A model generated the notes under the pieces. The model was not told the DNA's origin. It saw only the letters and a program-made list of their open reading frames with translations, and ran no database searches. A DNA stretch of 64,000 nucleotides from Escherichia phage vB_EcoM_CRP22. Every line of letters starts with the position of its first letter. The stretch's first letter is position 1. The stretch lies in the sequence record OQ708377.1. One strand, 5' to 3'. Shown piece after piece: positions 40,112-62,651 of the stretch. The translations under genes were made by a program, and so were the position numbers.

Positions 40112-40852
40112 TAACAAGCTCTATAGCTCATCTAAAACGTGCCTAAACAGGGAAACTCTACAGGTGTAGACAATCCTGTGCTAAATGATGTACGATGTAA
40201 GAAACTATATAAATAGGAGTATTACATGCCAAATTATCATGTTACTGAGGACGGAAGAGTCTTTAGGAAAAATGGTGTAGAACTTACGCAGTGGAAATCC
40301 AACACTGGTTATATGAAAGTAAGGTTTTATGGAAGGAAGAATCGTGACATGTATGTCCATAGGTTAGTTGCTGAAAAGTATGTACCTAACCCTAACAATC
40401 TTCCAATTGTAAAACACAAAGATGATAACAAACTGAACAACCATGCTTCTAACTTAGAATGGGGAACTCATTCTGAGAATGTTAAAGAGGGTTATGAAAA
40501 CGGTTGCTACAAGTTTTGTAAGCGTTCATATGCTGTGAAGGCTACACACAAAGTGACAAAAGAAGTTATTGTTGCTAAGTCAATACGAGAGTTATCCAAC
40601 ATACTCGGATATAATCGCAAGACTATCTCTTCAATATTGAAGGGTGTAAAAGAGCATAATAACTTTGAACATGAATTTGAGTACATTTAAATGCCGAACG
40701 ACTAACCGTGATGAATGTAGCGGTGTAGGGTCAAGCGACTCGAAATGGTACGCTACTTAGAAATAAGTAGAAGATATAGTCTGGACTTACTGGTGACAGT
40801 AAGCAGCTTGAATAAAGCGGGGTAAGCGTAGCGAACTTACCTGAACAACAAG
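40112..40852 (+). mobile_element. group I self-splicing intron interrupting nrdD, carrying an HNH endonuclease ORF
   Basis: Exon 1 ends in U, intron ends in G; 5' core (CTAAACAGGGAAACTCTACAGGTGTAGACAATCCTGTGCTAAAT) and 3' core (GTAGGGTCAAGCGACTCGAAA ... GATATAGTCTG ... CTGAACAACAAG) resemble the phage T4 td intron as recalled. Confidence 0.7.
40226..40690 (+). CDS. intron-encoded HNH homing endonuclease
   Basis: 154 aa; HNH-like core (VHRLVAEKY...NHASNLEWGTHSEN); located in intron loop with its own RBS (ATAGGAG). Confidence 0.65.
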   Translation: MPNYHVTEDGRVFRKNGVELTQWKSNTGYMKVRFYGRKNRDMYVHRLVAEKYVPNPNNLPIVKHKDDNKLNNHASNLEWGTHSENVKEGYENGCYKFCKRSYAVKATHKVTKEVIVAKSIRELSNILGYNRKTISSILKGVKEHNNFEHEFEYI

Positions 40853-44522: not shown

Positions 44523-44793
44523 AGCAGATTGGGAAATAAAAGACCTAATAAGTGATGCTGGAAATGGTTGTGAGATGTATATGATTCGTGGCCATATACC
44601 AGACCCATTAGCTCTTGAGATGATTGACCGTCACACAAACGGATTCTACAAAGAACTAGGTGAACCAAATGTTGAACGCACTTGGACAAAACCAGTACCA
44701 GATAGCACAGGCAACTGTTCAGTAATCTATCACATTGTGAATCCACAAAAATGCAAAACAGCTATGGCTGTGACATTCGTAACTTTTGATTGA
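44515..44793 (+). CDS. hypothetical protein
   Basis: 92-aa ORF. Confidence 0.3.
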   Translation: MAKADWEIKDLISDAGNGCEMYMIRGHIPDPLALEMIDRHTNGFYKELGEPNVERTWTKPVPDSTGNCSVIYHIVNPQKCKTAMAVTFVTFD

Positions 44794-44803
44794 GAGTAAA
44801 ACT

Positions 44804-45685
44804 ATGAAAACATCTATCCGTGTTATAATTCATTCACCGACAAAAGGGTCTCATGAAGAAGAGTTTAACATCATCCAGTTCCCTTCTGGTGAGATTGGTG
44901 GACACTTTTCACAAGAGCTTGTCGATTTTACTGCTTATGCAGCATCGTCCATCAACAATGTGATTATGATTGTAAAAGGCTACGACAAGGACACATTGTT
45001 TGCTGTGGCACTTGCTAAAGAAGCAATTGATGATTTAATTCCTCATGATTATGCCTTAAAGACTGTCATCTTTTACTACTTACCAAATGCACGATATGAC
45101 CGTCACATGTTTAAAGGTGATGCAGCAGCTTTGAAGGTTTTTGCTAAACAGGTTAATGCAATGAGGTTTGGTGCGGTCTGTGCAGTTGACCCTCACAGTT
45201 ATGTGCCAGATAACCTGTTTAACTGCTTCCAAAGTATTCCTCAAAATGAAATTGCAGTCCACTATGCAAATGACCCACTGGTTGATTACTTAGTAGCCCC
45301 AGATGCAGGTGCTTCTAAGAAGATTGCAGAGACTGCTAAAGAGGTGGATAAACCATACATCACAATGTCTAAAGTACGTAACCTTCAGACTGGTGAAATT
45401 ACTGGTATGCGAATCCTTGATGATGTGGATTTGACAGATAAAACTGTCATGATTCTTGATGATATCTGTGATGGAGGTCGTACCTTCATAGAGGCAGCTA
45501 AACATCTTCGTGAATCAGGTGCAAAACGTGTGGAACTCTATGTAACTCATGGCATTTTCTCTAAAGGTGTTGAAAATCTTCTTGACAATGGCATTGACCA
45601 CATCTACACTACAAACTCTTTAGGGGAAGCTAAAGACCGTGGTTTAACACATTATGGTCAAGTTACTGTAGCAAACCTTGATTAA
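44804..45685 (+). CDS. PRPP-synthetase-fold protein (ribose-phosphate pyrophosphokinase-like; candidate ADP-ribose pyrophosphokinase Adps)
   Basis: PRPP/ribose-5-phosphate binding loop VMILDDICDGGRTFIEAAKHL; start set at ATG 44804 preceded by GAGAG; directly upstream of NAMPT-like gene. Confidence 0.65.
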   Translation: MKTSIRVIIHSPTKGSHEEEFNIIQFPSGEIGGHFSQELVDFTAYAASSINNVIMIVKGYDKDTLFAVALAKEAIDDLIPHDYALKTVIFYYLPNARYDRHMFKGDAAALKVFAKQVNAMRFGAVCAVDPHSYVPDNLFNCFQSIPQNEIAVHYANDPLVDYLVAPDAGASKKIAETAKEVDKPYITMSKVRNLQTGEITGMRILDDVDLTDKTVMILDDICDGGRTFIEAAKHLRESGAKRVELYVTHGIFSKGVENLLDNGIDHIYTTNSLGEAKDRGLTHYGQVTVANLD

Positions 45686-45694
45686 AACTTTATA

Positions 45695-45715
45695 GGGGCT
45701 TCAAAGCCCCATTTT
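45695..45715 (+). terminator. hairpin (attenuator/terminator-like) between the NAD-pathway genes
   Basis: ggggcttcaaagcccc followed by ATTTT. Confidence 0.45.
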
Positions 45716-45731
45716 GAGAGAGATTAAAAAG

Positions 45732-47513
45732 ATGACTAAATCACTTTATGCAGTACCAGCAGGTCTTAATGCAGATGCTTACAAGGCATCACATATATAT
45801 CAGTATCCAGATGCTACACAGTATCTTATGTTGAACCTGACACCACGTAGTGATAAATGGTTTAACAGCCCTTTAGCCATTGACGGTGTAGTTGCTTTTG
45901 GTATTCAACGTTTTGTTAAAGATTACCTGATAGACCACTGGAATGCCACCTTCTTCGAACGTGACAAAAAAGAAGCAATTGACGAAATCTTAGAAGTCAT
46001 GAACGGTGTTCTGGGTAAAGATGCTATCGGTAGAGAACATTGGGAAGCACTTCACGACTTAGGTTATCTACCAGTTGAAGTATACGCTGTAGAAGAAGGC
46101 ACAGTTGTCCCTATGCGTGTACCAATGATTGTCTTCCAGAACACTGTTTCAGGTTTCCATTGGGTAGCGGGGTATCTGGAAGATGCTTTCTCTGCTGAGA
46201 TTTGGAAGGCTTGTACCATTGCAACTATTGCATTGCACTACAAACGTATCTGTAAGAAGTGGTCTGACCTTACTTGTGACAACGACTTGCATTTGCCTTA
46301 TCAGTGCCATGATTTTGCTATGCGTGGTATGTCCGGCTTTACTGATGACGCATTTAACGCTGTAGGACACTTAACCAGCTTTAAAGGGACTGATAGCTTC
46401 CCTGCTGTATATACAGCTAAACGCATCTACGGTCAGTCCTACCCAATCTCTGATATTGGTAGCTCTGTACCCGCCACTGAACACTCTGTAATGTGTGCAA
46501 ACATTGCTTGGGAAGGTGGTAATGAGTTGATTGAAGAAGAAAGACGCTTTAAAGGTGAGTTACAAACCTTCCGTCGTTTCTTAACAGAAACTTACCCAAC
46601 TGGTATTGCAAGTGTTGTTTCAGACACTTATAACTTCTGGAGAACTGTGTCAGAAATTTTACCAGCACTTCGTAAAGAAATTATGGAACGTGATGGCAAA
46701 CTGGTAATTCGTCCTGACTCTGGAGACCCTGTACATATTATCACAGGTTATAAAGCAATCCACTTAGAATGTGCTAAGAAGGCTTATTACGAGCACCTAA
46801 GCAAGCTGGAAGCCAGTGACACAATGCTGAATGCTGTTCTGAACATGAAGCTTGAAAACATCAACTATGGTATTGCTGGATGGCTACTGTCAGAAGGCTA
46901 CGAGATGGTTGTTGACAGAGAAGACTTTGAAGTTGCTGATACAGTGCTGTTGAAAAACGCTTATATGGTTGGCTCTGCAAACGTTGTAACACGTCCTGTA
47001 GCAGAGATTGATGGGGCTATTAAGACCTTGTATAACATCTTTGGAGGGACTATCAACTCTAAAGGCTTTAAGGTACTGGATGAGCACATTGGCCTCATCT
47101 ATGGTGACTCTATCACGCTGGAACGTGCAAACGAAATCCTGAAGCGTTTGTATGAAATGGGTTTTGCAAGCTCTAACGTAGTGTTTGGTGTAGGCTCTTA
47201 CACTTACCAGTATATGACTCGTGACACCTTTGCATTTGCTGTTAAAGCAACTCTTGCAAGTATTGGTGGCAAAGAGATTATGCTTGCAAAAGACCCTAAA
47301 ACAGACAGTGGTGTTAAGAAGTCTGCTTTTGGTGGTGTAGCACCTATGTGGGATGGCGATAAGCTGAAAGCTGTAGATGGCTATGGATTCCAGAGCTTTG
47401 CAGATGTGCTTGAACATCCAGCTTGTGCTTTACGTTTAGTCTTTAGTGACTCTGAGCAGTTCGGTTACACAACTCTTGGTGATATTCGAAATAATATTGA
47501 CAAGCAGCTTTAA
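45732..47513 (+). CDS. nicotinamide phosphoribosyltransferase-family protein (NadV/NAMPT-like; candidate Namat)
   Basis: About 594 aa from ATG 45732 (MTKSLYAVPAGLNADAYK...), N-terminus and length typical of NAMPT/NadV family (recalled); preceded by GAGAGAG. Confidence 0.7.
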   Translation: MTKSLYAVPAGLNADAYKASHIYQYPDATQYLMLNLTPRSDKWFNSPLAIDGVVAFGIQRFVKDYLIDHWNATFFERDKKEAIDEILEVMNGVLGKDAIGREHWEALHDLGYLPVEVYAVEEGTVVPMRVPMIVFQNTVSGFHWVAGYLEDAFSAEIWKACTIATIALHYKRICKKWSDLTCDNDLHLPYQCHDFAMRGMSGFTDDAFNAVGHLTSFKGTDSFPAVYTAKRIYGQSYPISDIGSSVPATEHSVMCANIAWEGGNELIEEERRFKGELQTFRRFLTETYPTGIASVVSDTYNFWRTVSEILPALRKEIMERDGKLVIRPDSGDPVHIITGYKAIHLECAKKAYYEHLSKLEASDTMLNAVLNMKLENINYGIAGWLLSEGYEMVVDREDFEVADTVLLKNAYMVGSANVVTRPVAEIDGAIKTLYNIFGGTINSKGFKVLDEHIGLIYGDSITLERANEILKRLYEMGFASSNVVFGVGSYTYQYMTRDTFAFAVKATLASIGGKEIMLAKDPKTDSGVKKSAFGGVAPMWDGDKLKAVDGYGFQSFADVLEHPACALRLVFSDSEQFGYTTLGDIRNNIDKQL

Positions 47514-55292: not shown

Positions 55293-56078
55293 ATGGGTAT
55301 TGTAAAAATCATCAATGGGGATATCTTCTCCGCATTTGATAAAGGTAAGTTTGATGTTATTGGTCACGGTTGCAACTGTATGAATTTAATGGGTGCAGGT
55401 ATCGCTGACAAGATTTCTAAACTTTACCCAAAAGCATATGAGACTGATACAGAAGTCTATCTGTATGCAGGTGGTATAGGTCACAAACCCTGTGAAAATT
55501 TACTAGGCAATTTCTCTGTAGCACGTTTAGAACAAGGCCGTATAGCTAACCTTTACACTCAGCTTAAGACTGGTAAAGATGCCCGATACAGTGCTTTAGA
55601 GTCATCTTTGAAACAACTTAACAGATACTGTGAAGTCAATCAGTTGAAGAAAGTTGGGTTACCTATGATTGGTGCAGGTATCGGTGGACTAGACTCTCAA
55701 GCCGTCACAGTCATCATTAATCAGGTGATGAAGAGTGTAGATGTGTATCTGTATGTCTATGAAGGAGAGATGTACCACAAGTTACGCTCAGGTTGGAAGA
55801 ACTACTGTGAACCAGAATACTTTGCTGGTGTAGTAGTGTTCACTAATGATGTAGTTACCCTCTTCAGACGAAGAAAAGGCAAGATACATCAAAGTAACCC
55901 TCCGGTTGAAAAGATGTCTCTAAGTAACGCTCTAGTTACCCACCTGTCGAAGAGCAATCACAGAATTGCAGTAACATTTGGCAGTGATGCAGATACATAT
56001 ATCTATGCAAGAACTGATGAGGATGTTGAGGAAATTTTCTCTTCACCGGAAGTAACCTTCTTAGACGCAAAGAACTAA
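55293..56078 (+). CDS. macro-domain protein (ADP-ribose binding/hydrolase candidate)
   Basis: N-terminal IINGDIF, GHGCNCMNLMGAGIADKI and later GLPMIGAGIGGLD match the macro-domain G-rich loop pattern. Confidence 0.5.
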   Translation: MGIVKIINGDIFSAFDKGKFDVIGHGCNCMNLMGAGIADKISKLYPKAYETDTEVYLYAGGIGHKPCENLLGNFSVARLEQGRIANLYTQLKTGKDARYSALESSLKQLNRYCEVNQLKKVGLPMIGAGIGGLDSQAVTVIINQVMKSVDVYLYVYEGEMYHKLRSGWKNYCEPEYFAGVVVFTNDVVTLFRRRKGKIHQSNPPVEKMSLSNALVTHLSKSNHRIAVTFGSDADTYIYARTDEDVEEIFSSPEVTFLDAKN

Positions 56079-56152
56079 GAAACTCTGTAGAATATTCACA
56101 ATAAACTAAGCCTTTCTTATCTGGTAAATTTTTCAGGTAAGGAGGGCTTTTT

Positions 56153-56330
56153 CATTTTAGAATTGTGCAGGTAGAGTTCTGTAGAGAAATCTGTAGAGAA
56201 AATTTTGAACTCCAAAGAGAAAATTCATTTTCAAACTGTGCAGGTAATCTCCAAAGAGCTTTTTCATTTTCAAAACGTGCAGACCCCGCTCAGGTCGGGC
56301 AAGAAAAATCATTTTAGAATTGTGCAGGTA
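56153..56330. repeat. four direct repeats of a 21-bp box CATTTT(A/C)(G/A)AA(n)(T)GTGCAG(G/A)(T/C)(A/C)
   Basis: Boxes at 56153-56173, 56226-56246, 56265-56285, 56310-56330 (first and last identical); also tandem TCTGTAGAGAAA x2 and TCCAAAGAG x2. Confidence 0.6.
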
Positions 56331-56584: not shown

Positions 56585-56791
56585 ATGCTTTACAGTCGTG
56601 AATTGATGGTTACAACTAACGTTAACACAAAGGTAAAACGTTTTTATATGCAAGTTTGCGGCGCATGGCGTAGAATATCAGAAGCTGATTATTGCAACTA
56701 TGTAGAAACGGCAATCAACTCCAATTGCTACCTTACGAAGAACACAAAGAAACTTATAAAACAGACAGCGGTTTACTATTACGATATATAA
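56585..56791 (+). CDS. small early-region protein
   Basis: 68 aa; ATG preceded by conserved CTAAACTGGAGAATCAAAA leader. Confidence 0.4.
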   Translation: MLYSRELMVTTNVNTKVKRFYMQVCGAWRRISEADYCNYVETAINSNCYLTKNTKKLIKQTAVYYYDI

Positions 56792-56880
56792 AAGTACTTT
56801 ACAGGGGGCTTAAAAGCTGATATCTTAAGCCCCAGATAAAGAGCTTTACTAAATTAACCCTTAAACTAGGAGATTCAAAA
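56792..56880 (+). promoter_or_regulatory. intergenic module A copy 1 (TTTACA-N17-TATCTT overlapping GC hairpin, conserved leader and RBS)
   Basis: aagtactttacagggggcttaaaagctgatatcttaagccccagataaagagctttac...taaactaggagattcaaaa. Confidence 0.5.
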
Positions 56881-57261
56881 ATGGCTTATCGTGCACCTAA
56901 ATTCATCAACAAAGACAACTTTCGCAACACACTGGAGAAGTCACTTGATGAAAATTTTAAAGGTAACATTGTTGTTGTTCACTCGTTTAATTTCAAGTAT
57001 GATATCAACGGGAATAAAATCAACCATTACACGGCAACCATGTTAGATGGTACACTATCAAGTGAAAAAGCCGTACTGAATGCACTTGCAGGACGTGGTA
57101 AAAACCTGATAAGATGCGATAAGAGACGTTATCAGGGTGGCGCATATGGTTATGATGATGCTGTTTATCATCTTGAAAATATGGGCTATTCAGTGGAAAA
57201 AGCTGGAGTGTCTCAAATAATCGGCAGTGACGGCTATGTGACAATTTTCAAAATTAACTAA
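56881..57261 (+). CDS. early-region protein
   Basis: 126 aa, follows module A. Confidence 0.4.
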   Translation: MAYRAPKFINKDNFRNTLEKSLDENFKGNIVVVHSFNFKYDINGNKINHYTATMLDGTLSSEKAVLNALAGRGKNLIRCDKRRYQGGAYGYDDAVYHLENMGYSVEKAGVSQIIGSDGYVTIFKIN

Positions 57262-57263
57262 TA

Positions 57264-57349
57264 AAGTACTTTACAGGGGGCTTATAGTTCGATAAAGTAA
57301 GCCCCAGATAAAGAGCTTTACCACTAAATCCTAAATTGGAGATTCAAAA
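57264..57349 (+). promoter_or_regulatory. intergenic module A copy 2
   Basis: TTTACA-N17-TAAAGT; hairpin arms ggggctta/taagcccc (compensatory variant). Confidence 0.5.
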
Positions 57350-57640
57350 ATGGCTATTATTAAAAACGTTGTAATTCCTGCAAAAACTCGTGATGACGCT
57401 CGCATCATGGCGAAAAAGTTAGGCGGGAAAGTGGTTGACAACGGAAAACAAACTGCTGTAAGGTGGAACGTGAAGGCGGATAAACAAATGAATTTAAAAA
57501 ATTCACCAATAAACCTTTTTACATGTGTAAACACTATCGGGAAAACGAATGTATACACTAAAAAGGCATATATCAGACGCATCGCCATGACGTCACCTAT
57601 TCGCACAATGAGAAGTCATGCAAAGCTGAAAATTAAGTAA
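57350..57640 (+). CDS. early-region basic protein
   Basis: 96 aa, follows module A. Confidence 0.4.
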   Translation: MAIIKNVVIPAKTRDDARIMAKKLGGKVVDNGKQTAVRWNVKADKQMNLKNSPINLFTCVNTIGKTNVYTKKAYIRRIAMTSPIRTMRSHAKLKIK

Positions 57641-57642
57641 TA

Positions 57643-57730
57643 GAGTACTTTACAGGGGGCTTAAAAGCTGATATCTTAAGCCCCAGATAAAGAGCTTTAC
57701 TACTCAATCCTTAAACTAGGAGATTCAAAA
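57643..57730 (+). promoter_or_regulatory. intergenic module A copy 3
   Basis: Near-identical to copy 1. Confidence 0.5.
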
Positions 57731-58243
57731 ATGAAAACTGTAGACGCTACCTTTGAAGTTGTAAAAGAAAAATTTTCCATCATTTACGAAGCTGTCAATT
57801 GCTACGAAGCAAGCCATAATCTTGATAATTGGAAGTTTACAGATGACCATCAAGGCGGTGTGACTATTAAAAACCCCAACTGTCAGCGTAATGGATTTAA
57901 ATATGCAATTCCTTTACATTACAGCCTTAAACAGCTTTCAATTGACTATGCAAAACAAGGCCGGGAAAATCCATCGAAAGAGGCTTACATCAGCTTACAG
58001 AAAGAACTAGAAAGAGATTTAGAGGCTTCAGAATATAACATCGCCGCGAAAGTTGTAGATGCAAACGGTAGCACGGTTTTAGAGAGTTTTTATATTGGTT
58101 ATGCTTTCGATTGGTGCTACAGTGACGGCGATGATTTAGATGACAGACTAAAAGAGGAAGTGAACAACGCAGACGCAGAATCTGAAGTATTAGAACGCTT
58201 GGAAGCATTAAAAGATTCAGTGATGAATATCTTTAAGAACTAA
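57731..58243 (+). CDS. early-region acidic protein
   Basis: 170 aa, follows module A. Confidence 0.4.
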   Translation: MKTVDATFEVVKEKFSIIYEAVNCYEASHNLDNWKFTDDHQGGVTIKNPNCQRNGFKYAIPLHYSLKQLSIDYAKQGRENPSKEAYISLQKELERDLEASEYNIAAKVVDANGSTVLESFYIGYAFDWCYSDGDDLDDRLKEEVNNADAESEVLERLEALKDSVMNIFKN

Positions 58244-58246
58244 ATA

Positions 58247-58330
58247 GATTTCTTTACACGGGGCTAACAAGCGGATATGATAGCCCCAGATAAAGAGATT
58301 TATCAACTGTCCTAAACTGGAGATTCAAAA
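58247..58330 (+). promoter_or_regulatory. intergenic module A copy 4 (diverged)
   Basis: TTTACA-N17-TATGAT; hairpin arms ggggcta/tagcccc; leader ...cctaaactggagattcaaaa. Confidence 0.45.
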
Positions 58331-58627
58331 ATGAAACTATCAAATAAAGTTAGGGAAAACCTTAGTAAATTACTCAACAAAATTGATTTTATCGAGACCT
58401 CAAGAAATACTCATGAGGTGATGGAATGGTTACACGGCAAAATAAAAGGCCGTCGTGTAGTGATTTGCTTATGGAACAGTTGCAGGGAATATAAAAAACC
58501 TGTATTACAAGTTAATATTTATGATGATACTTTTAAAAGTCCTGTAAAGTCTAAAAGCGATTTATTAGAATCCTATGAGATAACTGTAAATGGCAAAGTA
58601 TCACGTAAAGAGGAAACACCATGTTAA
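58331..58627 (+). CDS. early-region protein
   Basis: 98 aa. Confidence 0.4.
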   Translation: MKLSNKVRENLSKLLNKIDFIETSRNTHEVMEWLHGKIKGRRVVICLWNSCREYKKPVLQVNIYDDTFKSPVKSKSDLLESYEITVNGKVSRKEETPC

Positions 58628-58953
58628 TGATTGGTATCACTGCAACCGTTGCCATTTTCGCGCTATATAAGGCGTATAAGGCCTATAATCTAGCAAATAA
58701 GGCAATCACACAGCAGGTTAGCAATAACTTGGTAGAGAGCTTTCTAGGACGCCTCAGTGATGAGCAAATAAAGCGGCTAGAGATGAGCTTCAGATATAAA
58801 GCGAAAACCTATCAGATAAGTGACATCTTCAAAGATGATTTTCAGCTTGTCGATGATTATAACTCTCTGATAAATGCTTTAAATGTCAGTGACTTAAAAG
58901 ACTATTACGCTGTAATTGTTCAAGAATTGAGCAAACGAAAAAATTCCTCTTGA
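58621..58953 (+). CDS. early-region membrane protein
   Basis: 110 aa; N-terminal hydrophobic helix (MLMIGITATVAIFALY); start overlaps previous stop. Confidence 0.4.
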   Translation: MLMIGITATVAIFALYKAYKAYNLANKAITQQVSNNLVESFLGRLSDEQIKRLEMSFRYKAKTYQISDIFKDDFQLVDDYNSLINALNVSDLKDYYAVIVQELSKRKNSS

Positions 58954-59039
58954 TTTTGGTTTTTAAAACAAGTAAATTACTAATCAACGGGAGGGATAAC
59001 CTCCTACTAAATAAAGTCCTTAAACTAGGAGATTATAAA
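58941..59039 (+). repeat. intergenic module B copy 1 (GTAAATTACTAATCAACGG + GGGAGG/CCTCC hairpin + conserved leader)
   Basis: tcttgattttggtttttaaaacaagtaaattactaatcaacgggagggataacctcctactaaataaagtccttaaactaggagattataaa. Confidence 0.5.
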
Positions 59040-59312
59040 ATGTATACTACTAACAACGGTCGCACTTTAAACGTAACCCTACGTCACTATGTAAACGGTG
59101 TGATGTGCTTTGATGATTTACAAGCTGAGCAACATATCTTGGATTGGCAACTTGCAGGACTCCAAAAAACTGCTACCGGATACGGGAAAAAGATTCCAAC
59201 TAGCTGGAAAGTCCACTACAAAGGACGTTTGCGCAGAATTTATCAGGATATATGTAGCAATAGCGCATCAAGTTACATCATGGTAAAAGGTAAAAAATTA
59301 CACTTAGTATAA
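59040..59312 (+). CDS. early-region protein
   Basis: 90 aa starting MYTTNNGRTL at the conserved ATG after module B; ORF-track N-terminal extension is a translated repeat. Confidence 0.4.
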   Translation: MYTTNNGRTLNVTLRHYVNGVMCFDDLQAEQHILDWQLAGLQKTATGYGKKIPTSWKVHYKGRLRRIYQDICSNSASSYIMVKGKKLHLV

Positions 59313-59398
59313 AGTACTTTACAAGGGGCTTATAGTTCGATAAAGTAAGCCCCAGATAAAGAGCTTTACTAACTAAATCCTAAATTGGAGATTCAAAA
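59312..59398 (+). promoter_or_regulatory. intergenic module A copy 5
   Basis: TTTACA-N17-TAAAGT; same hairpin variant as copy 2. Confidence 0.5.
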
Positions 59399-59803
59399 AT
59401 GGCTATTAATAACCGTGAGTTATCAATCTTAAAAGCACGTTTGACCGTTAACCGGATTAATGTTATCACGTCATCAGCACCGGATGAAACACTTCAAAAC
59501 ATTATTAGGAAGATTCAAAGTGTTATCTTAGACGTTGAAAGCGTAAAAAACTCATTGGCTGACGTTGCAGCAGGTATCACGCTAGACGGTGCACAATATG
59601 AAATGGTTGACATGTTAGGCAAATCTAAAGTAATGAATAAAGAGTTAGATTTGAAAATGTTCCGTTTTGCTGTTAAGGTGTGGCTATCCATCGAATATGA
59701 CGCAAATTTTGCAATCGCTGACTTTTTCGCAACATGGTTACAACGTAATTTAACAAATTATGATTTTCGTGATATCTGCGATGCAATTTACGCAGAACTT
59801 TAA
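59399..59803 (+). CDS. early-region protein
   Basis: 134 aa. Confidence 0.4.
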   Translation: MAINNRELSILKARLTVNRINVITSSAPDETLQNIIRKIQSVILDVESVKNSLADVAAGITLDGAQYEMVDMLGKSKVMNKELDLKMFRFAVKVWLSIEYDANFAIADFFATWLQRNLTNYDFRDICDAIYAEL

Positions 59804-59908
59804 AAATTTCTCTTGATTTTGGTTTTTAAAACAAGTAAATTACTAATCAACGGGGAGGGAATGACCTTTCCCCCACTAAGTAAAGTCCTTAAACTAGGAG
59901 ATTCGAAA
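59804..59908 (+). repeat. intergenic module B copy 2
   Basis: tctcttgattttggtttttaaaacaagtaaattactaatcaacggggagggaatgacctttccccc...ccttaaactaggagattcgaaa. Confidence 0.5.
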
Positions 59909-60112
59909 ATGGCTATTATTAATGGTTTAAACATTGAAACTACTCACATCAAAGATATTAAAGTCGGCGATATAGTCCTTTTTCACGGCGTAGAAAAAAC
60001 CGTCACTGAAAAGGATATCAAAGAGGATTCATTCATGGGTCGGTCGCTCTTCGGTGATTCCTATTGCTTAGGTTACCGTGCAGTTTTAAAAGTTGTCAAA
60101 AATAATCGTTAA
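59909..60112 (+). CDS. early-region protein
   Basis: 67 aa starting MAIINGLNIE at the conserved ATG. Confidence 0.4.
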   Translation: MAIINGLNIETTHIKDIKVGDIVLFHGVEKTVTEKDIKEDSFMGRSLFGDSYCLGYRAVLKVVKNNR

Positions 60113-60123
60113 AGTACTTTACA

Positions 60124-60198
60124 AGGGGCTTAAAAGTTGATATCTTAAGCCCCAGATAAAGAGCTTTACCACTAAATCCTAAACTGGAGATTCAAAAA
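60124..60198 (+). promoter_or_regulatory. intergenic module A copy 6
   Basis: TTTACA-N17-TATCTT; hairpin ggggcttaa/ttaagcccc. Confidence 0.5.
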
Positions 60199-60765
60199 AT
60201 GAAATGCTATCACGGCACTACTCTGAAAAACTTTGTAAACCTGCTTAAAGGTGGCGACAAGCCGGAAGGTATCTGGAACTGCTCTTACATGGATGATTGT
60301 TTTTACGTTTACCCGATGGATAAGATTATCAAGACGGAATGCCTGGAAGATGAAGAAGACCCTTACATCCGTGAACGCTGCATTCAAAACGCTTTAGAGT
60401 CGGGGCTTATTACGGCAGCTTTCCAAATGGAAACGCAGGAAGTGATTGTAATTGAGATGGATATCCCAGAGGAAGAGCTTGAGGATGATTATTCTTGTGA
60501 CAACATGAGCGAAATCGCCAGCTTTACCGGTTACTTTGATAAAGATTGGATTATCGGTATTCACTCGACGAAATTTAGTGCAATGTATGCGCCATTCTTT
60601 GTTCCTGATACAACTAACCATAATTTGGGCTATATTGACGATGATTTGTTGAGTATTGCAAAAATTGTACAGAATAGCGGGGAGACTTCTTCTGTGTTTT
60701 GTGACCTGCTGGATAAAATTACCGAGAATCTCACAGAGCGCAATCTAAGCGACTTTTTAGACTAA
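60199..60765 (+). CDS. early-region protein with ADP-ribosyltransferase-like (H-G-T) N-terminal motif
   Basis: 188 aa; MKCYHGTTLKNFVNLLKGGDKP resembles the YHGT NAD-binding strand-helix of diphtheria-toxin-class ARTs and Tpt1/KptA (recalled); aromatic-rich SYMDDCFYVY; acidic stretches. Confidence 0.35.
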   Translation: MKCYHGTTLKNFVNLLKGGDKPEGIWNCSYMDDCFYVYPMDKIIKTECLEDEEDPYIRERCIQNALESGLITAAFQMETQEVIVIEMDIPEEELEDDYSCDNMSEIASFTGYFDKDWIIGIHSTKFSAMYAPFFVPDTTNHNLGYIDDDLLSIAKIVQNSGETSSVFCDLLDKITENLTERNLSDFLD

Positions 60766-60794
60766 GCAGTACAAAGACACTAATTTCCAACTTA

Positions 60795-60815
60795 AGGCCC
60801 ATACAGGGCCATTTA
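60795..60815 (+). terminator. hairpin terminator-like element
   Basis: ggcccatacagggcc followed by ATTT. Confidence 0.4.
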
Positions 60816-60828
60816 GAGGGCTTAAATC

Positions 60829-61062
60829 ATGCTTACAACCGTTTATCTCATCCTTTCTATTTGTAACGGTCATTCATGTGATTTTAAAGGGCTTGAGGAG
60901 TTTACAGGAAGTAAAGAAAATGCTATTCAGGTTTGCCAGATAGCAAGGCAAGACTATCCCGCCAGTGATGATATACAATGCTACTTCAAAACAGAAGATA
61001 ACGACGGCGTCTATTTTGATAGTGTCGATGGTCAATATGAAATTATCATTGAAAAAGACTAG
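60829..61062 (+). CDS. early-region small protein with N-terminal hydrophobic segment
   Basis: 77 aa; MLTTVYLILSICNGHSC... Confidence 0.35.
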   Translation: MLTTVYLILSICNGHSCDFKGLEEFTGSKENAIQVCQIARQDYPASDDIQCYFKTEDNDGVYFDSVDGQYEIIIEKD

Positions 61063-61078
61063 ACAAGCCTGATAAAAG

Positions 61079-61153
61079 TCTGTAAATTACTAATCAACGG
61101 GGAGGTAATGACCTTCCCCACTAAATAAAGTCCTTAAACTAGGAGATTCTAAA
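61079..61153 (+). repeat. intergenic module B copy 3
   Basis: tgtaaattactaatcaacggggaggtaatgaccttccccactaaataaagtccttaaactaggagattctaaa. Confidence 0.5.
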
Positions 61154-61402
61154 ATGTATACTAAAACTCAACTAAAAAACATGGTTAGCAATGGCTTAAT
61201 GGATGAAGTCTATAAAGAGTGTAGACGATATGGAGAAATCAAAGGTAAAACAAGCTATGAATACACCCACACAATAAACTTTAAAACTAATGAGCAAAAA
61301 ACCGACTTAATAACTAGCATTATAATTGAGTATAAAGGTATAATATGGTCCTTTGAGCTAGTGAAAGGTGAGTGCATAGAAATCGAATACAAAGACGCTT
61401 AA
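61154..61402 (+). CDS. early-region protein
   Basis: 82 aa. Confidence 0.4.
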   Translation: MYTKTQLKNMVSNGLMDEVYKECRRYGEIKGKTSYEYTHTINFKTNEQKTDLITSIIIEYKGIIWSFELVKGECIEIEYKDA

Positions 61403-61488
61403 AAGTACTTTACAAGGGGCTTAAAAGTTGATATCTTAAGCCCCAGATAAAGAGCTTTACCACTAAATCCTAAACTGGAGATTCAAAA
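61403..61488 (+). promoter_or_regulatory. intergenic module A copy 7
   Basis: Identical core to copy 6. Confidence 0.5.
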
Positions 61489-61830
61489 ATGGCTTATGTA
61501 ACCGTAATTACTGATAAAGCTGGCTCATCTTGGTCAACTCAAGTAAGTGATAAGATGTCACCTATGCAGTGCCTAAAATACTTTGAGCAGTGGAACAAAG
61601 GCGAGGATGTCAGCCCCTTTCAAGTGATGCAAATCATCCATACAGATAACGAAGGAAACAAAACGACACTTAATAGTGAGTATTACACAAATCGTTTTGA
61701 GAGTCGAGTTGAAACGATGAAGGGGCTGCGTGAGGCCGGATATGGGCACATTGCCGCCTTGTTATGGGATGACCTGCTAAAAAGTCAGCGTATCAGCTAC
61801 ATAAAACCTGAAAAAATATTCATCAGTTAA
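61489..61830 (+). CDS. early-region protein
   Basis: 113 aa. Confidence 0.4.
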   Translation: MAYVTVITDKAGSSWSTQVSDKMSPMQCLKYFEQWNKGEDVSPFQVMQIIHTDNEGNKTTLNSEYYTNRFESRVETMKGLREAGYGHIAALLWDDLLKSQRISYIKPEKIFIS

Positions 61831-61977
61831 TCAATAACTTACAAAAAACTTTTAAAAAAGTGTTGACAATCCCTATTGACATTGGTAACTTTGTTCGAGG
61901 GGGCTTATCTTAAAGGGATTCACTTAAAAGGTTCTTTATAGATAAGCTCAAAAAATTACTTGCAATCAGATATCAAA

Positions 61978-62051
61978 ACAAGTAAATTACTAATCAACGG
62001 GGAGGGATTAACCTTCCCCACTAAACAAAGTCCTAAACTGGAGATTCAAAA
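61978..62051 (+). repeat. intergenic module B copy 4
   Basis: acaagtaaattactaatcaacggggagggattaaccttccccactaaacaaagtcctaaactggagattcaaaa. Confidence 0.5.
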
Positions 62052-62582
62052 ATGAACAAGTTCAAAGCTATCAACTTCATTCGTTCAAATAGTGTCATGT
62101 CAAAGCCTGTTAAAGATACCTATGAATTTCGTTGTAATGGTGTACATTTTGCAACAATCACCAAATCAGAAAACGGGGCTTATTACGTCCATCGTCGTAA
62201 TGTTGCAACCGTTGCAGTCTCTCACTTTATGCAAGCTGTAGCGGAATTATTACCGTTATTCTTAGAGATTTATCTAGATGATTGTAAAAACGTTCACAGA
62301 CACGTTAAAAACCTTTTAAACGGTTATAGAATGGCTTATGAACGTTCTATCAAGTCCTTAAACAAGTTCTATAAAGCCCCTGTAAATACCGTTTCAATGG
62401 CCTATGGCGTAGGTGGCTGGACTGTTAACCTTTCTCTAGTGGAAGAAATCGAGCTTTATGATTTACGCCCTGATGGATACTCTAAGACACTGGGAGAGGG
62501 CTTATCTTTCAATATCAAGAACTTAGAGAAAACTTTAAAAGATATTGAAAAAGATATTGACGAGACAACCAAAAATCTGTAA
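62052..62582 (+). CDS. early-region protein
   Basis: 176 aa; stop codon TAA forms the start of the next module B core (cTGTAAATTAC). Confidence 0.4.
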   Translation: MNKFKAINFIRSNSVMSKPVKDTYEFRCNGVHFATITKSENGAYYVHRRNVATVAVSHFMQAVAELLPLFLEIYLDDCKNVHRHVKNLLNGYRMAYERSIKSLNKFYKAPVNTVSMAYGVGGWTVNLSLVEEIELYDLRPDGYSKTLGEGLSFNIKNLEKTLKDIEKDIDETTKNL

Positions 62583-62651
62583 ATTACTAATCAACGGGGA
62601 GGGGATGACCTTCCCCACTAAGTAAAGTCCTTAAACTAGGAGATTCAAAAA
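62577..62651 (+). repeat. intergenic module B copy 5
   Basis: ctgtaaattactaatcaacggggaggggatgaccttccccactaagtaaagtccttaaactaggagattcaaaaa. Confidence 0.5.

Follow-up and report, generated by a model that had tools for sequence, protein, structure and literature searches.

A gene of Escherichia phage vB_EcoM_CRP22, a phage of the Felix O1 type, encodes a small acidic protein that very probably has the fold of ADP-ribosyltransferases (ARTs), judging from its predicted structure. The gene lies at 60199..60765 of the 64,000-nucleotide (nt) stretch of DNA analysed here (sequence record OQ708377.1; hereafter the window), and its 188-residue product belongs to PHROG 3303 (E 4e-85), an entry without assigned function. 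An earlier note, made from the letters alone, had read this product as ART-like from a motif at its N-terminus, a reading now supported by the predicted fold and by the conservation of H5, Y36 and D97. Taken together, model and sequence indicate that the protein is probably an enzyme using nicotinamide adenine dinucleotide (NAD+). For its overall function, we consider it moderately likely that it is an early-made, stand-alone mono-ADP-ribosyltransferase of the H-Y-D type that modifies a host macromolecule. The features on which the analysis turns are as follows.

60199..60765, plus strand: coding sequence with an ATG start, from the open reading frame (ORF) list, for the 188-residue acidic PHROG 3303 protein with a predicted ART fold
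60199..60579, plus strand: ART-like core, residues 1-127, in the structural model
60580..60762, plus strand: helical C-terminal region, residues 128-188, family-specific and poorly conserved
60211..60222, plus strand: H5-G6-T7-T8 on strand 2-8, the candidate NAD+-binding HGT motif with triad position 1
60274..60285, plus strand: W26 and S29 (100% and 96% conserved) in the loop joining helix 1 to strand 2
60304..60306, plus strand: Y36 in FYVYP on strand 35-39, candidate triad position 2
60487..60507, plus strand: D97-Y-S99-C100-D-N102-M103 block after strand 3, with D97 as candidate catalytic acid at triad position 3
60100..60198, plus strand: repeated 99-nt intergenic cassette adjoining the 5' side of the gene, one of six copies of its family (D1)

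The product has the N-terminus MKCYHGTTLKNFVNLLKGGDKP and contains the segment SYMDDCFYVY and the acidic run PEEELEDD, so that the ORF, its length and the sequence landmarks were all as the earlier note had described them. Its computed isoelectric point (pI) is 4.1 and its net charge -25. As a check, that note had proposed structure prediction and a fold search, taking the lack of an ART fold as evidence against its reading. The AlphaFold2 (AF2) model of the protein (predicted local distance difference test score, pLDDT, 88; predicted template modelling score, pTM, 0.85) contains the split β-sheet that characterizes the ART superfamily. The N-terminal part of the core consists of a strand (residues 2-8), a helix (9-16), a flexible loop (17-34) and a second strand (35-39), and is followed by helices 40-46 and 54-76, strand 80-88, a conserved loop (89-107) and strands 108-110 and 118-126. 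Model confidence is lowest in loop 17-34 (pLDDT ~57), which may be the counterpart of the flexible donor loop of ARTs, and residues 128-188 could serve as a target-recognition or regulatory module. A Foldseek search of BFVD yielded a significant match to a phage protein annotated as DarT (E 9.3e-4, probability 1.0), along with weaker matches to several proteins of Bacillus phage G, a rifampin-ART-like protein and a phage Tpt1. At least 10 ARTs are encoded by phage G according to the survey text of Iyer et al. (2022). Foldseek against PDB gave nothing significant (best E 0.19), the top matches being pertussis S1, TreTu and CC0527.

Conservation was assessed in 193 aligned relatives, down to ~25% identity. 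Near-invariant positions comprise H5 (98%), G6 (96%), T7 (88%), T/S8 (96%), W26 (100%), S29 (96%) and Y36 (100%), and, after strand 3, D97 (99%), S99 (99%), C100 (93%), N102 (88%) and M103 (91%), with most other alignment positions far more variable. In the ART superfamily, the first triad position is a His or Arg on strand 1, which here is H5 within H-G-[ST], and the second is a Tyr, His or Ser on strand 2, which here is the invariant Y36. The third is a Glu, Asp or Gln, or a hydrophobic residue, on the strand that faces the cleft, and the candidate for it, D97, is located just after a two-residue strand (95-96) following strand 3 (80-88). Sequence and model suggest that H5, Y36 and D97 together make up a catalytic triad of the H-Y-D type, as in Arr and in ARTs of the H-Y-[ED] class, an assignment drawn from motif and topology, not from demonstrated homology. 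W26 and S29 possibly contact NAD+ or the target. The HGT tripeptide occurs once in the 31,381 residues of the window's stop-to-stop ORFs of at least 60 residues, within the chance expectation of ~2 (a rough estimate from typical amino-acid frequencies), and therefore is no evidence by itself. What goes beyond chance is its conservation across the 193 relatives, not its occurrence. In TRPT1, HGT binds the 2'-OH of the adenosine ribose through its His and Thr and nicotinamide through its His and Gly; diphtheria toxin-like toxins and several PARPs likewise have the His-Thr pair (PMC10415124).

Sequence searches did not place the 188-residue protein in any Pfam, NCBIfam, PADLOC or PDB (phmmer/hmmsearch) family. 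A Pfam match to REC104 (E 0.14) was judged spurious, and weak PDB and NCBIfam matches to VapC6/PRK12496 were dismissed because they reflect a short local '...DDY..N' similarity. The family models PF01885 (E 0.053) and NF002013 (E 0.0014) were each matched by only one of 44 members. In hhalign, comparison with a KptA profile was not significant (E 0.012 over 18 columns, HGT strand and first helix only) and placed residues 2-19 on residues 102-119 of Escherichia coli KptA (LYHGT and helix); a single KptA sequence aligned at the expected motif, also without significance. Equally non-significant was the alignment with a two-sequence Arr profile (E 0.062), where residues 58-100 fell on Arr-2 53-94, covering a helix, strand 3 and EDD; in greedy mode with the same profile, HGT was also colinear with HGT. 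The Arr-2 sequence was checked against PDB 9iba, and Arr-ms positions were taken from the 2hw2 alignment. Since none of these profile-profile alignments is significant, we claim no sequence homology to KptA or Arr.

The closest parallel at the motif level is nevertheless with Arr (PF12120), whose H-Y-D motif (HGT...Y...EDD) is present and colinear in the phage protein; neither detectable sequence similarity nor close structural similarity to Arr was found. Like Arr (Arr-ms 2HW2/9IAF, Arr-2 9IBA), the phage protein is small, stand-alone and acidic (pI of Arr-2, 5.2). Landmarks of Arr-ms in the 2hw2 alignment are H19 in LHGT, Y49 in HIYIT and D84, the second Asp of IEDDPN, and their candidate counterparts in the phage family are HGT, FYVYP and LEDDYSC, in a similar order and with similar spacing (31 residues from His to Tyr, versus 30 in Arr-ms). 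In both, x-E-D-D follows strand 3 and the second Asp is conserved or catalytic (D84 in Arr-ms, D97 in the phage protein); the two residues are colinear in the non-significant hhalign alignment, in which L-E-D-D lies on F/I-E-D-D of Arr. The catalytic H-Y-D motif of Arr includes Tyr49, and Asp84 and Gly20 are part of the same binding site (bioRxiv 10.1101/2025.02.20.639278).

An R-S-E identity of the kind seen in cholera, LT and pertussis toxins, with Arg on strand 1, S-T-S on strand 2 and ExE before strand 5, was rejected because position 1 is a His. Small protein-targeting ART toxins (Rhs TreTu/TreX, LT-A, pertussis S1) have Arg-based triads (R-S-ExE; R-H-W in TreTu) and cognate immunity proteins, whereas a His occupies position 1 of the phage protein, beside whose gene no neighbour is conserved. 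The T4 enzymes Alt, ModA and ModB are also of the R-S-E type, Alt being packaged in the virion. No sequence relation of the phage protein to these enzymes or to AcrIF11 was detected, and the host groups of the respective phages differ.

The region matches Felixounavirus-type phages from Escherichia, Salmonella and Shigella at 84-92% DNA identity, and the gene itself is distributed much more broadly. Homologs were detected by tblastn in 372 phage records, including Felixounavirus, Suspvirus, Kolesnikvirus (Erwinia), Pakpunavirus (Pseudomonas), Vibrio phages of 138-141 kb and others, and among the tblastn matches listed they are annotated as hypothetical or generic phage proteins or not at all. 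At 50% identity, an exhaustive profile search collected no fewer than 589 clusters, of which 445 lay at E<=1e-10; among the matches listed, the relatives are single-domain proteins of 149-242 residues. Plasmids yielded no homolog, and a viral contig scan found 11 loci, mostly in Ounavirinae. The median pI of the family is 4.23 and its median net charge -21. PHROG 3303 is a large, hitherto unannotated family of stand-alone, strongly acidic proteins of ~185 residues with a predicted ART fold, from virulent myophages and many metagenomic relatives. Enterobacterial phages carry two classes of alleles, one with at least 80% identity (42 records) and the other, in the rest, with ~51-57%; none of the enterobacterial tblastn records falls between 60% and 80%. 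Invariant active-site residues together with a rapidly changing surface are what one would expect if an enzyme faces a variable host target or inhibitor, and the gene-sized island of divergence suggests that the allele a phage carries could affect its host range or its evasion of defences.

A GGAG Shine-Dalgarno sequence is found ~10 nt 5' of the ATG at 60199, and a promoter-like scan located a sigma-70-like site at 60118-60146 (TTTACA-N17-TATCTT, with an extended -10 TG). Both are parts of the cassette at 60100..60198, in which a -35-like TTTACA and an extended -10-like TGATATCTT precede GGAG, and a hairpin, GGGGCTTAA...TTAAGCCCC, spans the spacer and the extended -10-like element. The six copies of this 99-nt family start at 56780, 57252, 57631, 59300, 60100 and 61391 (56780-61489) and have in common TTTACA, a hairpin GGGGCTTA...TAAGCCCC over the -10-like element and the GGAG Shine-Dalgarno. 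Five copies of a second family of 70-81 nt are present in 58940-62651, characterized by TTGAYTTT..., GTAAATTACTAATCAAC and a hairpin GGGGAGGG...CCTTCCCC, and the two families jointly stand 5' of most small genes in this region. From this sequence pattern, we infer that the cassette at 60100..60198 acts as an early promoter. Of the 'promoter-punctuated early array' described in the earlier note, the repeated promoter-like cassettes are plainly visible in the DNA and early expression would be their presumed consequence.

The early-region neighbourhood was compared across seven divergent contexts: the window, Erwinia, Vibrio and two Pseudomonas phages, and two metagenomic contigs. The PHROG 3303 gene is the only one common to all or nearly all of them, and the seven have no conserved partner or immunity gene next to it. 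Neighbouring ORFs in the window have no Pfam matches and belong only to PHROGs without assigned function. In the metagenomic contigs L006 (1643-2125, 4119-4799) and L007 (2159-3383, 5350-5970), SprT-like, GP88/DUF7227 and LPD11 domains are encoded near the ART-like gene. Such domains are typical of 'polyvalent' anti-defence proteins of phages. They were rejected as conserved partners: the window has no homologs of them, and no neighbour is common across the clades.

The earlier note had further pointed to a macro domain and a pair of NAD+ genes elsewhere in the genome, and Pfam confirmed both. A PRPP (phosphoribosyl pyrophosphate)-synthetase-like protein of 299 residues, directly followed by a NAMPT-family protein of 599 residues, is encoded at 44786-47513; we take these genes to be an NAD+ salvage or reconstitution pair of the NARP2 type. 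At 55293-56078 lies the gene for a 261-residue Macro-domain protein, in which only residues 25-141 match Pfam Macro. Outside Ounavirinae, its tblastn relatives extend over little more than residues 1 to ~155, and the C-terminal ~100 residues are an unassigned, lineage-restricted extension. Relatives are annotated as 'phosphatase' or Poa1p-like. Just 3' of the Macro gene and of a terminator-like hairpin at 56108-56149, four copies of a ~28-34-nt element (...TTCATTTTnnAAnTGTGCAG) recur at intervals of 39-73 nt in 56143-56327 and may constitute a regulatory or binding-site array. With Macro and NAD+ genes present, the trio of ADP-ribosylation writer, eraser and cofactor supply proposed in the earlier note is plausible, although nothing supports it specifically. 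Co-occurrence with the Macro gene, which that note had suggested as a check, was rejected as specific evidence, since the Macro protein, itself Poa1p-like, is present in 2,808 phage records, T4-like phages without PHROG 3303 among them, and is ~7 times more widespread. Pakpunaviruses, which carry homologs of the PHROG 3303 gene, encode NARP1 and a Poa1p-like Macro domain, and in the Adele genome paper the homolog is absent from the ADP-ribosylation-related annotations (PMC12846349).

Under the mechanism that we favour, the protein would be synthesized early from its own sigma-70-like promoter cassette. His, Gly and Thr of the HGT motif would grip NAD+ at its adenosine ribose and nicotinamide, Tyr36 would stack on the nicotinamide and its ribose, and Asp97 would assist transfer of ADP-ribose (ADPR) to the acceptor. 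The resulting mono-ADP-ribosylation of a host macromolecule could promote host takeover or counter defence. The likeliest acceptor would be a protein, either basic or nucleic-acid-binding, or a defence component, a choice that we make only tentatively; it would be selected by the variable surface and the helical C-terminal region (residues 128-188).

A rather unlikely alternative is that the substrate is a small molecule, the protein being an Arr-like enzyme inactivating an antiphage compound or an immune second messenger, a binder of ADPR-derived signals or an NAD+ glycohydrolase. The H-Y-D pattern and EDD best match Arr, itself a small-molecule ART, and the acidity and small size of the protein are compatible with such a role, as is the lack of a conserved protein partner nearby; the NAD+ salvage genes of the phage also point to a conflict over NAD+ or ADPR. 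Transfer to nucleic acid, with a Tpt1- or DarT-like enzyme ADP-ribosylating an RNA or DNA phosphate or base, for instance in tRNA repair or in modification of host or phage nucleic acids, has a low probability. The likeness to Tpt1/KptA noted earlier holds for the HGT strand and first helix, which can be aligned, and fails for the N-terminal RNA lobe, the triad and a significant PF01885 match. All family members, including the phage protein, start 1-4 residues before HGT, whereas HGT of E. coli KptA is at residues 105-107 of 184; because the phage protein begins at the HGT strand, the RNA lobe with its phosphate-binding Arg/His/Arg residues is missing. Furthermore, triad positions 2 and 3 are an invariant Tyr and an Asp, in contrast to the H-H-V triad of TRPT1, PARPs having H-Y-E (PMC10415124). 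The family median pI of 4.23 differs strongly from that of the KptA set (8.8), and such extreme acidity is unfavourable for nucleic acid binding, which disfavours a DNA or RNA acceptor; the much wider distribution of the Macro protein also weighs against this reading. For DarT (PF14487), an ART of single-stranded DNA thymidine that is DNA-binding, unlike the acidic phage family, neither a Pfam nor a PADLOC match was obtained, and no DarG, Macro or NADAR antitoxin gene is adjacent.

It is equally improbable that the protein is a catalytically inert ART-fold binder, such as an acidic DNA-mimic-like inhibitor or a decoy of a host protein, a host ART or an NAD+-dependent defence enzyme. In 88-100% of relatives, down to ~25% identity, the H, G, T, Y and D residues are retained precisely where an active ART requires them, and inert binding is hard to reconcile with this conservation unless the protein at least binds NAD+. 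Finally, the protein might not be an ART at all, with a chance HGT and a fold match arising from a wrong or over-interpreted prediction. Consistent with this are the near-chance frequency of HGT alone, the lack of a significant sequence match to any ART family and the failure of Foldseek to find a PDB match below E 0.19, yet we regard it as highly improbable.

Phage ARTs as such are already known, among them Alt, ModA and ModB of T4, and AcrIF11; what would be new here, on the strength of the model and the conserved residues, is the assignment of PHROG 3303 to this superfamily. We found no annotation or paper making this assignment in the literature and databases. The text of the 2022 survey by Iyer, Aravind and colleagues does not mention the family, and a prior listing in its supplementary tables is possible; in the same text on viral NAD+ and ADPR systems, ARTs of the Arr family are reported only from phages of Microbacterium, Gordonia and Sinorhizobium. 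If correct, our assignment adds a His-type family to the known phage ARTs. Felixounaviruses and Pakpunaviruses are in wide use for therapy, for typing and as models, and their early regions consist almost entirely of unannotated small genes; a shared early gene to which an ART fold and an intact pattern of the H-Y-D type can be assigned offers a testable handle on how they reprogram or disarm the host. With it, genomes that have NAD+-reconstitution and Macro genes also contain a likely NAD+ consumer. In a bolder version, which we consider unlikely, the protein founds a new family of H-Y-D ARTs, encoded by the single conserved early gene of several widely used groups of virulent myophages (Felixounavirus, Pakpunavirus and others), and is a counter-defence enzyme whose acceptor is so far not known as a substrate of ADP-ribosylation by phages. 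That acceptor might then be a host immune protein or, in line with Arr, a small molecule, for instance an immune second messenger, and the alleles, which are discrete and cassette-like, would follow differences in host target.

Elsewhere in the window, the ORF at 40226-40690 encodes an HNH_3 endonuclease (Pfam E 2.6e-10), likely a mobile homing endonuclease.
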